Of a DNA stretch of 64,000 nucleotides, positions 12,434-16,782 are shown one piece after another. Made by a program: the position numbers and the translations under genes. Source of the stretch: an uncultured delta proteobacterium (GTDB taxonomy: Bacteria > Desulfobacterota > Desulfobacteria > Desulfobacterales > CAVQMW01); the NCBI GenBank assembly GCA_963713755.1, contig CAVQMW010000002.1, forward strand, positions 15,637 through 79,636, read 5' to 3'. Within the stretch, counting starts at the first letter, position 1, and each line of letters begins with the position of its first letter. The notes under the pieces were generated by a model. That model was given only the letters and a program-made list of their open reading frames with translations, had not been told where the DNA came from and made no database searches.

Positions 12434-13569
12434 TTAGTAGAACTCAAATCTCAAGTGTCGATCACCGAGCCAGGATATGCCCAGAGCATTTCTATCAAGC
12501 CTTGCAGCCTTGATAATTGGATTATGGGATCTTCTGGGGAATTTAACTGTAATATCTTTTTCTCGCACAATGACATCAGCTTTCATATTGATGAACTGAC
12601 GAAAGATGGTTGCCGAACGGCAATGTTCGAACCCTCTGAGTTTCTGAGACAACAGATGATAAAGTGTATGGGCAACCATGGTCATCAAAACATCAAAATG
12701 CACCTTGATCAGAATAGACGACGAAAGGGCATTGAGGCTGAAAAACTTTACTGCCTCGGCAATCCCGTTTTCAACTCGCCATCTTTGGGCATAACGCAGG
12801 ACAATGGAATCCGCAGGGCTGTCAAAATCGTTGGTCACCAAAAACGAGGGTTGCTCCCTGCCCGTGCCTTTCATCACGATCTGTCGAATCTTGGAATCGT
12901 AACTATCAAGCCTTGTCGTGGACTCGTAAAGCAGGGGTGATTTATACTTTCTTTTCGGAATATCCAGGTGAGTTTTCTTCCACTGTTTGGCGGGAATCAG
13001 TTCCACGGCTTCTAACAGTTTTTTGCCACGCCTGCGCAAGGTGATGAAATGAACACCCAAATGATTGAGGGTATTCAAGTGCTCGTATGTCGTAAGCTTA
13101 GAATCAAAGACTAGGGTGGAGTCCAGTTTGCCGTGGATCTTTTTCCAGAACGATACAAAATTAAGAACCTGCTCGGAGGCTTCGCTGCGGAGGATGTCGG
13201 CCTGGGCGTACTGAAACAACTCTGATTGGCAGTCTTGGGCAAACAAGGTCAGAGCGCCCTTGAGGCGCTTGCCTCTGGTAGGTACCCACTGGGTATCCAT
13301 GACAGACTGCTCGCCCCAATGGGGAATACTGTGAAAATCCAGATTGATGGTCTTTGACCGGTAGGCATGCTGCCGGTTCATCTCCTTAACGAAACCTTGC
13401 AGCAAGCGGTCCAGAGCGGATGTCTCCAGTCGATAGGAGTAATCGGAAATGGCCGTGCACTTGGGCAAAACATTGAGCCCGGCAAACAAGCCCATGCCTT
13501 CATCGAAGTCCCTCTGTGCCAATGAAGGTGAGACACCTACCCCTTGAATAATTAATGTAGGGCGGATAG
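12434..13569 (-). pseudogene. IS4-group DDE transposase, N-terminally truncated at the IS701-like element boundary
   Basis: ORF 12434..13522. Candidate catalytic residues lie in INLDFHSIPHWG, LVFDSKLTTY and the Y-x2-R-x3-E-x6-K signature YAQRWRVENGIAEAVK. The frame stays open upstream of the first start codon right up to base 13569, where the IS701-like IRL begins. Only about 75 aa precede the first D, so the DNA-binding N-terminus is missing. Confidence 0.65.
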
Positions 13570-15882
13570 CACTACAGCGAAATCTTTTTTATAGACTTAT
13601 ACCCCAAAAGTGTGTATGCTTTCAAATAAGCGGGTGATCGATGGGGTTGCGGCGTTATGCATAGTGCATCAGTCGGCTTGAAAGTGGCTTTTGCCGCTGT
13701 TGAGGATCTGTTCCCTGTCAATGACACCCCCATTGAGAGCATGCACCAATTCCAAAAACCAAGCGTTATGCTGCCACCGGTTCCGGCCACCGCCAATACA
13801 AATGCAATCGCCGGAAAGCTGAAAGATATTGGCCCGGCCACCGTCGAGCCGATCAGCGGTTCTGGCTGGGAGCCTTTGTGGGATCGATGGGTCAGAGAGC
13901 ATCACTATCTGGGTTATCGGAAACTTCTGGGGCATCGACTCAAGTACTTCGCTTTCCTTGAAGACCGACCGGTAGCAGCCCTGTCTTGGAGCGCGCCGGC
14001 CTTAAAACTATCCGTAAGAGACCGTTTTATCGGTTGGTCGCCGGGGCAACGAAAACAACATCTGCATCAACTGGCCGCCAACAGCCGGTTTTTAATTCCG
14101 TCTTGGGTTCGGATTGCCAATCTGGCCTCGCACGTGCTGGCTCTGAATATTGCGCGGCTTCCCGAGGATTGGTTATACCATTTCAACCATCGACTTCTTT
14201 TGCTCGAGACGTTTGTCGATAGCCGGTACTTTGAAGGTACCTGCTATAAGGCCGCTAACTGGCAACATCTTGGACATACGTATGGCAGCACGAAACAAGG
14301 AAAAGGATATCGCTATCATGGCAACCCAAAGGAGGTTTTCCTTTATGTTGTAAACCCTGATTTCAGGAGCATTATCAATTGCCGCCGACTGCCCACCCCT
14401 CTTCATCACCCTCCACCCACCCAAACCAAAGTGGAGGCGCTGGTCATGCTTTTAAAACATTGCCAATGGCATCGGCAACTGACCGCCGATTTGAATCTTG
14501 ATTCCAACGATATTGAGGCCATGGCAAAAGAGTTGGTCAACTTTCATCAACGCTTTCATGGCGCATACGGGCGCATCGAACATCACCGCCTGGGATTGGC
14601 CTATCTGTCCGGGCTCATGAGCAATGCCGAGGCCAAATCCGTGGAACCGATTGCGCTGGAGTTTCTCGACAAAAAATCTGTCCGCTCCATGCAGATGTTC
14701 ATGAAGACCTTTCGTTGGGATCATGGTGCCATGCTGCGGACCCATCAAGAGATGCTGGCCGAACTGATCGCAACCCCCGAGGGGATGATCACCATCGATG
14801 CCAGCGATTTTCCCAAAAAGGGTAAAGAATCGGTCGGCGTGGCTCGCCAGTATTGCGGCACTGTCGGAAAGGTCGAAAACTGCCAGTCTGGGGTCTTTGT
14901 CGGCTATGCCAGTGATAAGGGCTACGGTCTGCTCAACGGCCGGTTGTATATGCCGGAAAGCTGGTTTTCCAAAGAGCAGGAAAAAAGGCGCCGATTCAAC
15001 CTGGTCCCTGAAGATCTCGTTTTTGAGACCAAGCAGCAGATCGCCCTTAAATTAATCGATGATGTCAGAGCAACCGGTAATTTTCCCGTTAAATGGATCG
15101 GCGCCGACGCCGCTTTTGGCGGCGACATCGAATTTTTAAACGCTCTGCCCAAGGATCTCTTTTACTTTGCCGCGATCAAGTCCGATACTCAGGTTTTTAC
15201 CAAAAAGCCAAAAGTGGGGCTCCCGCTCTATAAAGGGCGCGGCCGTCGTCCCACCAAAATAAAGGTATTACCGGGTCAACCCAAGCCGCGAAGCGTCGCA
15301 GAAATCGCTAAGTCCGACCGTGTGTCCTTCAAGCCGGTCGTGGTTGCCGAGGGTGCCAAGGGGCCGATCATCGCCAAGGTGGCTCGCATTCGGGTCTATC
15401 TGTCTCGGGACGGATTGCCGGTCGGCGACGCAGCAATGGCTCTTGTTGAGAAAAACAACGATAGCGAAATCAAGTTCGCTATCTCCAATGCACCCAAAGA
15501 GATCTCTCTTTCCGAGATGGTTGAGGCCTCCACCATGCGTTGGCCGATCGAACAGTGCTTTCAGGAAGGCAAGGGACAGGTCGGAATGGATTGCTATGAA
15601 CATCGTTCCTGGCCCGCCTGGCATCGTCATATGGCCTATGTGTTCTTGGCCCTGCACTTTATGTTGCGGATGAGATTGCGATTTAAAAAAAACGCCTTTG
15701 CTGACAGTTTCCTTGGTTCGTAAAATACTATCGTTAGTACTTCCTCTCAGGTCTCTGAGTGTCGAGGGGGCAATGGAAATTGTTCAATATCACCTGACCC
15801 GGAATTTAACCGCTTATAAGTCGCATCGAAAAAAAAGAGTCAAGCTGGCAGAATCCTATAACATCAATCTTTCGCTGCAGTG
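13570..15882 (+). mobile_element. IS701-like insertion sequence (about 2.3 kb) with terminal inverted repeats
   Basis: The left end is CACTACAGCGAAA (13570-13582). The right end TTTCGCTGCAGTG (15870-15882) is its reverse complement with 12/13 identity. The ends enclose a single long transposase gene. The flanks ATAG and ATAC do not give a clean target duplication. Confidence 0.7.
13657..15723 (+). CDS. DUF4338 (DruA-type N-terminal domain) fused to IS701-family DDE transposase
   Basis: The N-terminal half reads WDRWVREHHYLGYRKLLGHRLKYFAF..ALSWSAPALKLSVRDRFIGWS..RKQHLHQLAANSRFLIPSWVRIANLASHVLAL..LPEDW..LLLETFVD..YFEGTCYKAANW, which is the DUF4338 pattern. The C-terminal half reads GMITIDASDFPKKGKESVGVARQYCGTVGKVENCQSGVF..WIGADAAFG..RWPIEQCFQEGKGQVGMDCYEHRSWPAWHRHM, which is the IS701 DDE pattern. 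Confidence 0.8.
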   Translation: MHSASVGLKVAFAAVEDLFPVNDTPIESMHQFQKPSVMLPPVPATANTNAIAGKLKDIGPATVEPISGSGWEPLWDRWVREHHYLGYRKLLGHRLKYFAFLEDRPVAALSWSAPALKLSVRDRFIGWSPGQRKQHLHQLAANSRFLIPSWVRIANLASHVLALNIARLPEDWLYHFNHRLLLLETFVDSRYFEGTCYKAANWQHLGHTYGSTKQGKGYRYHGNPKEVFLYVVNPDFRSIINCRRLPTPLHHPPPTQTKVEALVMLLKHCQWHRQLTADLNLDSNDIEAMAKELVNFHQRFHGAYGRIEHHRLGLAYLSGLMSNAEAKSVEPIALEFLDKKSVRSMQMFMKTFRWDHGAMLRTHQEMLAELIATPEGMITIDASDFPKKGKESVGVARQYCGTVGKVENCQSGVFVGYASDKGYGLLNGRLYMPESWFSKEQEKRRRFNLVPEDLVFETKQQIALKLIDDVRATGNFPVKWIGADAAFGGDIEFLNALPKDLFYFAAIKSDTQVFTKKPKVGLPLYKGRGRRPTKIKVLPGQPKPRSVAEIAKSDRVSFKPVVVAEGAKGPIIAKVARIRVYLSRDGLPVGDAAMALVEKNNDSEIKFAISNAPKEISLSEMVEASTMRWPIEQCFQEGKGQVGMDCYEHRSWPAWHRHMAYVFLALHFMLRMRLRFKKNAFADSFLGS

Positions 15883-15928
15883 ATACGAGATTTCACCATG
15901 AAAACCAACTCATCTGTTAAGCTGACCC

Positions 15929-16782
15929 CTATCGATACCGCCGTCCCATCACCGGAGCCTGGGGAACCTTGCCGATGGCCCAATTGACCCTGTATTGGAC
16001 ATCGCCGCTCCGTGGCGGACCGTAGACGATGCCCTGCAAATTCTTGTATTCCAGTATGGGCGTGAGAATCTGCGAGGTCCAGGAAGCCGCCCCGCGCAGA
16101 GGTCCGGATTTTAAAGCAGCGCCCAGCAAGGTGAAGTTGGCCATGCGCAGGCCATCCAGCGTGGTGCCGTCGGCCATGACAATCTTTGTATCGAGGGGAG
16201 CGGTAATCGAAAAGGTGTAATTGTCCAGGTCCGAGCTTTGATCCGGATTTATAATGGCCGACTGTAAGTCAGCGGTATCCACCGGGCCGCCAAGCTGCAT
16301 GGCACGCAACCTCCCGGGCATCCCGGTGAAACCGTTCAGCATGAATAAACCCTGGGTGCGGGGAGTTTCCACATCCGCAGGTGCCCACAATCTGACAAGT
16401 CCGCTGCCCGTTTCCCTGCTGTCCAACTCGCCCGTGCGTTTCTTCGGGTTTCGTTCCGCCACATGACCATGGCAGTCATGCCGCCGTCCCGGGGCGCAAA
16501 ACACAGCCGTCCCGGTTCCAGTCGATATGCCCTCCCGGTGATCGTGGCCTGCATTGAACCGGTTTCCAGATGATTACCGCTGGGGATTGAGTCGTGGTTG
16601 TTCCAGGAAATGCGGATAGAGATCCGGACCGGCATCTCTTCCCCGCCATCCAGCGGGCCAGTACCCACTTTTGCTTGGGATAGGGCCTGTTCGACCGGGC
16701 TGAGTACCATGAACAAAGCACTCAGAATTACACCTAGCAGCAGGCAGATGCATCGGCGTGCGGAGGTGTCTGATCCTATCAT
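15929..16782 (-). pseudogene. secreted hypothetical protein, apparently frameshifted
   Basis: ORF 16336..16782 (signal peptide CICLLLGVILSALFMVLSP) and ORF 15929..16504 overlap in different frames on the same strand. Each looks protein-like only on its own side of about 16440-16500. The start lies 1 nt after the upstream gene's stop. Confidence 0.5.

Follow-up and report, generated by a model that had tools for sequence, protein, structure and literature searches.

Insertion sequences are usually held to encode only the functions of their own movement, and the locus described here raises the question of what a domain named after an anti-phage defence protein is doing at the front of a transposase. 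The locus lies in a stretch of 64,000 nucleotides (hereafter the window; positions 15,637 to 79,636 of the forward strand of contig CAVQMW010000002.1, assembly GCA_963713755.1) from an uncultured delta proteobacterium of the Desulfobacterales. It consists of an insertion sequence (IS) of the IS701 family (13570–15882, forward strand, 2,313 bp) whose zero-frame open reading frame (ORF; 13657–15723, forward strand) encodes a protein of 688 amino acids, made up of a domain resembling Mom of phage Mu, a linker and the IS701 transposase. The original prediction described this ORF as a DruA-type DUF4338 domain joined to an IS701-family DDE transposase, and saw in the domain either a DNA- or end-recognition module of the transposase or a defence domain captured by the IS. 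Our analysis shows that it is a GNAT-fold member, of ~200 residues, of the family DUF4338/PF14236, belonging to an IS-associated branch that is homologous to Mom and in which the active-site residues have been kept.

Profile searches recovered both predicted halves within the one ORF. The Pfam model DruA/DUF4338 (PF14236) matches residues 67–212 (E value 4.3e-28; 98.8 bits for a cut-off of 27), inside the region 60–250 in which the domain had been expected, and the Pfam model DDE_5 (PF13546) matches residues 304–569 (1.5e-47). The NCBIfam model transpos_IS701 (NF033540) delimits a complete IS701-type DDE transposase region at residues 295–671 (14539–15669, forward strand; 1.8e-83, 280.8 bits, cut-off 150), and the fact that nearly the whole model is matched (positions 3–361 of 363) indicates that the first ~290 residues are an addition to the transposase and not a replacement of part of it. 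Residues D381, D484 and E648 are invariant in the alignment of homologues (A1) and are, as judged by motif, the candidate DDE catalytic triad. The added domain spans residues ~45–250 (13789–14406, forward strand), an assignment in which the Pfam match concurs with the structural model, the fold and profile comparisons, residue conservation and the selection analysis described below.

The original prediction regarded DUF4338 as having no assigned biochemical function which, if read as having no assigned fold, is out of date, since the family has been called a GNAT domain (PMC10853773). The structure prediction that it called for agrees with this. An AlphaFold2 (AF2) model of residues 1–290, built on 76 sequences, has a mean pLDDT (predicted local distance difference test) of 79.6, with residues ~45–250 mostly above 90, and adopts a GNAT fold, for which Foldseek gave Mom as the closest solved structure (8bv8_B; E value 2.4e-7, TM score 0.62 on the target, 17% identity). 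Indeed, the two Mom chains occupy the first two ranks and ordinary GNAT acetyltransferases only start at 2.0e-5. Mom-like proteins are also the top matches of the model (m39fc6dbf6f3c) in the viral structure library BFVD. In the same library, many phage proteins of 400–700 residues with the annotation 'endonuclease-like' or 'homing endonuclease' have a part that matches the Mom-like model, which is another joining of this fold to mobile-DNA nucleases. A sequence search against solved structures gave no match; at the profile level, hhalign aligned the IS-type domain with the Mom family with a probability of 95.6% (E value 1.2e-8, 155 columns). This comparison relies on an alignment of nine Mom sequences built from phage records, as the match to a lone Mom sequence is weak and becomes significant only against the nine. 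It was carried out with a domain-only alignment (A3), which replaced one of full-length fusions (A2) that had produced a spurious match in the transposase part. Of the 150 nearest domain representatives, 13 are matched by the Pfam model of Mom (PF25680).

Mom is a GNAT-fold enzyme that moves glycine from Gly-tRNA(Gly) onto the adenine N6 of double-stranded DNA, for which Silva et al. have proposed an active site composed of H58, Y59, R111, S124, D149, R151 and Y159, with R111, S124 and R151 being essential (PMC13219725). In the hhalign alignment these residues fall on H83, Y84, R144, S158, D188, R190 and Y197 of the window protein, all seven being identical. Karambelkar et al. number Mom differently (R101, S114, D139 and Y149), so that R111 in the former numbering is R101 in the latter, and report this arginine to be conserved among Mom homologues and not among GNATs at large (PMC7261163). 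Over the 150 nearest representatives at 50% identity, conservation at these positions amounts to 99% for H, 88% for Y, 99% for R, 97% for S, 80% for D (with E in a further 12%) and 98% for the final Y, and the arginine that follows the aspartate is shifted one residue later in most clades (70%). In the genome of Microbacterium phage MenE (L071, 195–928) a tRNA-Gly(CCC) gene directly adjoins a Mom-like acetyltransferase gene, a neighbourhood that fits the use of Gly-tRNA(Gly) by Mom.

The alternative that survives best is that the domain is an ordinary acyl-coenzyme A (acyl-CoA) GNAT, acetylating a protein such as a nucleoid or host factor or the transposase, a small molecule or, like the toxins TacT and AtaT, a charged tRNA, and thus tuning transposition or host physiology and leaving DNA unmodified. 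The fold would allow it, and many acetyl-CoA enzymes do rank after Mom in the fold search, but the best matches of both structure and profile are Mom and not the CoA-dependent enzymes. In GNAT motif A the canonical CoA loop reads Q/R-x-x-G-x-G/A. The corresponding position in the window protein reads NLASHV, a departure comparable to that of Mom, which has RNSES. S158 is the counterpart of a serine in Mom that reportedly holds the CoA pyrophosphate (PMC7261163), and DUF4338 is described as a plain GNAT among the variable effector-type N-terminal domains of DndF (PMC10853773); against this stand the almost universal presence of an arginine that is Mom-specific and no general GNAT feature (PMC7261163) and the fact that Mom itself uses Gly-tRNA(Gly) and not acetyl-CoA (PMC13219725). 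We thus regard an acyl-CoA enzyme as unlikely.

The name of the Pfam family raises a second possibility, which requires that the relation to DruA, a component of the Druantia system, be established. PADLOC models of DruA had no match at E≤0.01 to the whole window protein and, when applied to its N-terminal 290 residues, reached 13.4 bits (E value 0.0079) over 47 residues; on the same models genuine DruA proteins score 708–720 bits. A relaxed tblastn search retrieved three true type I Druantia operons (L086–L088), all on plasmids, namely pUW163a of Ralstonia solanacearum UW163, pKF715A of Pseudomonas putida KF715 and pNWAT01 of Nitrosococcus watsonii; the scores for genuine DruA come from these operons, in which one DruE scores 2,300 bits. 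DruA is a tight family of ~410 residues, found on long contigs beside druB–E, and its named members are proteobacterial; the IS-associated branch of DUF4338 is large, and the nearest relatives of the window domain are predominantly associated with insertion sequences. The two are nonetheless related: hhalign aligned the IS-type profile with DruA (probability 95.8%, 125 columns), limited to DruA residues 83–216, and the motifs GxxL(K/R)Y and RDxFIGW are shared in this N-terminal half. At the positions occupied by H/Y, R and S in the IS-type domain and in Mom, DruA has A110/A111, V177 and G190; the ETFVD...GTCYKAANW block of the IS-type domain has no alignment with DruA, and DruA and Mom themselves gave no significant match with hhalign (probability 1.4%). 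An AF2 model of a genuine DruA, built on a shallow alignment (≥69% identity), had a pLDDT of 50.5 and was too poor for a fold search. The label 'DruA-type' thus reflects the name of a broad Pfam family, and the window domain sits in a different branch of it, with a Mom-like active site. The suggestion that the fusion bears on the role of DruA in defence is weaker than supposed, as DruA shares only the N-terminal half of the fold and is devoid of four or more Mom-type residues.

The family name has also travelled. Among the protein clusters of P0025 and P0321, RefSeq applies 'Druantia anti-phage system protein DruA' to a 121-residue N-terminal fragment of the present transposase family and also to a stand-alone IS-associated member of 298 residues, which shares 50% identity with P0142 and lies on a 3-kb contig, so that the name is spreading to proteins that are not Druantia components. 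On pKF715A of P. putida (L087, 9066–12966) a canonical IS66 element (tnpA, tnpB and transposase) lies directly upstream of the genuine druA; this may be a coincidence, and is worth recording in view of the pairing of IS-type DUF4338 genes with IS66 transposases that is described below.

With this relation in mind, the domain could be a passenger for defence or counter-defence, directed against phages, other mobile elements or the restriction systems of the host and taking no part in transposition itself. Its relatives in type I Druantia and in DndF fusions (PMC10853773), the profile match to DruA and the fact that Mom itself is an anti-restriction enzyme all speak in this sense. Yet the PADLOC score is some 13 bits where DruA proper exceeds 700, and the Mom-type H/Y, R and S that the domain has kept are missing from DruA. 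Also, no Druantia or other defence genes were found near the IS in the window, where there are no notable PADLOC matches and the largest ORF has 907 residues, and the domain profile, run against 2.9 million viral contigs, gave five confirmed loci only, none of them Druantia. Finally, repeated in-frame fusion to five transposase families, always at the transposase N-terminus (see below), argues for joint action with the transposase. A defence passenger is accordingly rather improbable, and the captured defence domain of the original prediction is not supported in view of the scores, the lack of neighbouring dru genes and the size of the IS-associated branch.

The extent of this branch became evident from a HMMER search with residues 1–270 against 1.84 billion cluster representatives, which yielded 6,111 clusters, defined at 50% identity, at E≤1e-3, of which 420 reach E≤1e-30. 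In 55 of the 150 best representatives the domain is fused directly to the N-terminus of a transposase, the partners being IS701 (DDE_5) in 27, ISAs1 in 24, IS4/Tn5-type in two, and IS630 and ISAzo13 in one each. The assignments are supported by the family models (NCBIfam ISAs1, 177–238 bits; IS630, 199 bits; ISAzo13, 497 bits), and the fusions tested span these models almost entirely (3–361 of 363 for IS701, 3–387 of 387 for ISAzo13 and 2–297 of 299 for IS630). Where DNA-binding parts could be found, the partners have their own: HTH_23/HTH_32 in IS630, the IS4/Tn5 DNA-binding domain, and DDE_Tnp_1_assoc in the ISAs1 fusions. Near-full-length partners with their own DNA-binding parts indicate that the module is a portable accessory and not the part that recognizes the ends.

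The domain also occurs in stand-alone forms of ~295 residues, located on short contigs, as repeats are, one such form having 7,426 matches. All seven stand-alone members examined lie directly upstream of, and co-oriented with, a transposase gene, which is of IS66 type in five cases and distantly IS1182-like in two; in three of the IS66-type elements both genes are enclosed by long terminal inverted repeats (69 nt and 96% in L062). Elements with this arrangement, a ~295-residue DUF4338 gene before the DDE transposase gene, are found at L062 (138–2577), L078 (192–2745), L079 (507–3547), L074 and L076, the last two each carrying two different DUF4338–IS66 elements in tandem, and no further gene was called upstream of the DUF4338 gene inside the repeats. 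The stand-alone forms in alignment A3 have an additional conserved N-terminal region of ~90 residues, outside any Pfam model and absent from the window protein, with the motif IRGRxI...GRxxIS...CxxxxWxQPNGxxKDxACRExLLxLExxGLIxLPP, which may be a DNA-binding domain. Altogether, DUF4338 modules are fused to, or directly precede, transposases of seven families (IS701, ISAs1, IS4, IS630, ISAzo13, IS66 and IS1182-like), a recurrence that suggests an accessory transposon activity not described before.

These data bear directly on the idea that the domain is a non-catalytic binding module, either recognizing DNA or the transposon ends, as in the first option of the original prediction, or sensing a charged tRNA or metabolite and gating the transposase. 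Its N-terminal place is where transposases usually bind DNA, and the ~90-residue region of the stand-alone forms could itself bind DNA; however, the near-complete partners retain their own DNA-binding parts, a single end-recognition specificity is implausible because the partners belong to seven IS families, and conservation of 97–99% at residues that are catalytic in Mom (88–99% if the first tyrosine is included) is unexpected for mere binding. Such a role is thus quite improbable, and end recognition does not agree with the distribution of the domain.

Evidence that the fused protein operates as a unit comes from its conservation and mobility. A search of 5.8 billion proteins returned 1,720 homologues at E≤1e-3, and in all of the best 120 of them, drawn from NCBI, ENA, JGI and Logan assemblies, both Pfam domains are in one chain of 589–755 residues; RefSeq names these fused homologues 'IS701 family transposase'. 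Complete genomes of cultured Desulfosarcina ovata hold many copies of a 720-residue fused version, and a scan of one genome per species gave 52 loci in many phyla. In a complete Thermodesulfovibrionales chromosome (OY970295.1) there are eight identical copies of a fused element of ~2.3 kb, with ends TACTACAGCGAAG... and ...CTTCGCTGTAGTA, every one of which is flanked by a perfect 4-bp duplication (CTAT, TTAG, TTAA, TTAG, TTAA, CTAA, ATAG and TTAA). Perfect duplications (ATAA, TTAA, CTAA and CTAG) also flank four of six other elements that are closer to the window copy, from which it follows that the fused protein belongs to active elements inserting at NTAR sites. In comparisons of the window gene with five relatives, the ratio of non-synonymous to synonymous substitution rates (dN/dS) is 0.10–0.15 for the N-terminal domain and 0.07–0.12 for the transposase core, and the linker is also under purifying selection. 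That two genes have been joined artificially, through assembly, a frameshift or gene calling, as some D. ovata copies annotated as a 121-residue 'DruA' fragment plus a 443-residue transposase might indicate, has a virtually negligible probability in view of the single uninterrupted ORF, the 120 fused homologues from independent sources, the eight identical full-length copies in a complete chromosome and the selection across the linker.

We therefore favour, tentatively and as being nearly as probable as its contrary, the view that the module is a catalytically active, transposase-tethered nucleic-acid transferase of the Mom type, nearly all of the doubt residing in the inferred steps of this proposal. 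From the residue pattern and the structural model, the N-terminal module would act as an acyl or aminoacyl transferase. By analogy with Mom, its donor would probably be an aminoacyl-tRNA and less likely an acyl-CoA, and its acceptor probably a DNA base, for example adenine at N6. The DNA-binding part of the transposase would bring the module to DNA in cis, where it could mark the transposon ends or the target DNA, and the stand-alone forms would be brought near DNA by their extra ~90-residue region. As its most economical purpose, the mark might then either feed back on transposition, in the way of Dam for IS10 and IS50, or shield the DNA, the activity remaining in any case accessory and apart from end recognition and cleavage. 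A broader version, in which insertion sequences of at least seven families write a bulky DNA mark from charged tRNA, as an 'epigenetic' system of their own that controls or protects their transposition, and in which DruA is a diverged offshoot that has lost the Mom-type site, appears doubtful.

Several observations weigh against a Mom-type transferase. The window protein has no match to Pfam PF25680 at E≤0.01. In Mom, a helix-turn-helix (HTH)-like insertion (~175–209) is essential for momylation and has been proposed to contact DNA (PMC13219725); it is missing from the window domain, appearing as a gap in the hhalign alignment and as a short β-hairpin region in the model, and the domain has a two-helix insertion of its own with the family signature RDxFIGW...NxRFLI. 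Binding of acetyl-CoA by Mom had been reported earlier (PMC7261163), for which reason the assignment of the cofactor is not secure. The regulatory role of DNA marking, and its benefit to the element, are proposed by analogy only. The copy in the window, which is the single one in the 64 kb, may be inactive. Its flanks, ATAG at 13566–13569, a candidate copy of the target-site duplication that fits NTAR, and ATAC at 15883–15886, agree at three of four positions only, as opposed to the perfect duplications of the relatives named above, and this imperfection could result from point mutation or rearrangement. In addition, D. ovata has several identical 443-residue 'IS701 family transposase' entries without the N-terminal domain (P0393, P0401 and P0402), in the same 90% cluster as the 720-residue form. 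Either these copies are disrupted, or they are elements without the domain that spread nevertheless; if real and mobile, they would make the domain dispensable for transposition.

Concerning the element itself, its predicted limits hold well. The left terminal inverted repeat CACTACAGCGAAA (13570–13582, forward strand) and the right one (15870–15882, reverse strand; reverse complement CACTGCAGCGAAA) match at 12 of 13 positions, and no second pair of this kind occurs in the window. Both ends have their homologues in multi-copy relatives, whose left end reads (C/T)ACTACAGCGAA(A/G), and the length falls within the 2,313–2,325 bp of related, duplication-bearing elements. Its description as apparently intact stands as regards the uninterrupted ORF and the presence of the repeats, and has to be qualified for the flanks and for a 1-nt deletion, relative to close relatives, between 13642 and 13643; the out-of-frame tail described below is the norm of the family and not damage. 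This deletion puts an upstream ATG at 13616 (MLSNKRVID...), which is the start in some relatives, out of frame, and the annotated start at 13657 may thus be a secondary one. A promoter scan upstream of the ORF at 13657 revealed nothing above chance. The neighbours of the IS comprise a truncated IS1380/IS4-like transposase, an aldo/keto reductase, Tct and ABC transport proteins, a VWA protein and DUF3617. The truncated gene (12434–13522, reverse strand) encodes a DDE transposase of another family lacking its N-terminus, with weak IS1380, IS4 and IS701_3 matches at model positions ~211–417 only, and the IS begins, at its left end, 48 nt away from it. Splitting of this gene by the IS was considered and rejected, as joining the flanks in silico gave no convincing continuation beyond the IS; what lies to the right is the 3' end of a gene unrelated to it, with the stop at 15929.

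A distinct feature emerged at the 3' end of the ORF, and constitutes a second lead that is independent of the Mom-like domain. Some 25 codons past the WPAWHRH motif, the window copy and nearly all its relatives have a conserved slippery run, TTTAAAAAAAAC (15682–15693, forward strand), with eight consecutive A at 15685–15692, which is a candidate recoding site. Beyond it the zero frame is unconserved and in the window stops at 15721–15723, and the +1 frame encodes a C-terminal tail (TPLLTVSLVRKILSLVLPL...AYKSHRKKRVKLAESYNINLSLQ, followed by the stop codon; 15692–15883, forward strand) with a consensus across phyla of KKTPxLTxPxxRxLxxxVLP...YHxxRNxxAYxSHRKK. Of 35 non-redundant loci, 26 have the tail in the +1 frame, three in the −1 frame and four in frame, and two have no recognisable tail; the four in-frame loci include one with a run of seven A, one in which an indel compensates, and L046, where the match to the query starts at the transposase part. 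In agreement, the ratio of non-synonymous to synonymous polymorphism (pN/pS) over the tail region is 0.15–0.33 in the +1 frame and 0.85–3.7 in the zero frame, and all eight recently active copies on OY970295.1 have the eight-A run with the tail out of frame. From its sequence pattern, the combination of T3A8C with a conserved +1 tail looks like programmed recoding, either by transcriptional slippage or by +1/−2 ribosomal frameshifting. A full-length transposase of 741 residues would then be made by a frame change at T3A8C, through slippage of RNA polymerase or of the ribosome, most of the product being the zero-frame protein of 688 residues and a minor share the tailed form.

The fusion is already visible in public annotation, and its bare observation is not new; in literature searches, no published description came up of the fusion itself, of the range of IS families that have it, of the Mom-type active site or of the recoding site, and the one mention of DUF4338 is as a GNAT domain (PMC10853773). 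What stands out is that a second, probably catalytic, module has been recruited repeatedly by unrelated transposase families and kept under selection that equals in strength the selection acting on the transposase. If the module is indeed a Mom-type modifier, a new layer of transposon biology would be added, namely the marking or protection by elements of their own DNA, and the 6,111 clusters would represent a large new reservoir of DNA-modifying enzymes. Database labels would then need re-reading, since the naming of transposase fragments as DruA in RefSeq would inflate defence-gene counts.

Comparison with known systems places these features in context. The window element resembles other members of the IS701 family, whose transposases bear the COG label 'SRSO17 transposase', in having a DDE transposase above the whole-model cut-off, short inverted repeats, a single transposase gene and, in its relatives, the 4-bp NTAR duplication, and its size of ~2.3 kb is also alike once the added domain is counted. 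It differs by ~290 extra N-terminal residues holding the Mom-like GNAT domain and by a C-terminal tail that is out of frame behind T3A8C, in frame in the unfused relative L046. With respect to Mom, the window domain is ~17% identical and is fused to a transposase, in contrast to a free phage late protein. For control of transposition by a modified base there is a functional analogy only, in Dam methylation of adenine N6 at the ends of IS10, IS50 and IS903, which modulates transposase binding and ties transposition to replication. There, however, the enzyme is a methyltransferase of the host, whereas here it would be the element's own and chemically different. As for the candidate recoding site, slippage on A runs and programmed frameshifting in the IS1 and IS3 families have been reviewed (PMC5009743), and the term IS701 does not occur in that review. 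Those systems are alike in having a homopolymeric A run at the junction of overlapping frames, both kept over long evolutionary distances, but the shift in the window, instead of separating a DNA-binding OrfA from a catalytic OrfB, is near the C-terminus and past the catalytic glutamate, and most copies of the present IS701-type family need a +1 change, or the loss of one A. The closest parallel to the fusion itself is found in jumbo phages, where Mom domains are fused to restriction-endonuclease-fold domains (PMC7824862): in both cases a Mom-type domain and a DNA-cutting enzyme are linked covalently, the partner there being a nuclease read as a restriction component and here the DDE transposase of an insertion sequence.

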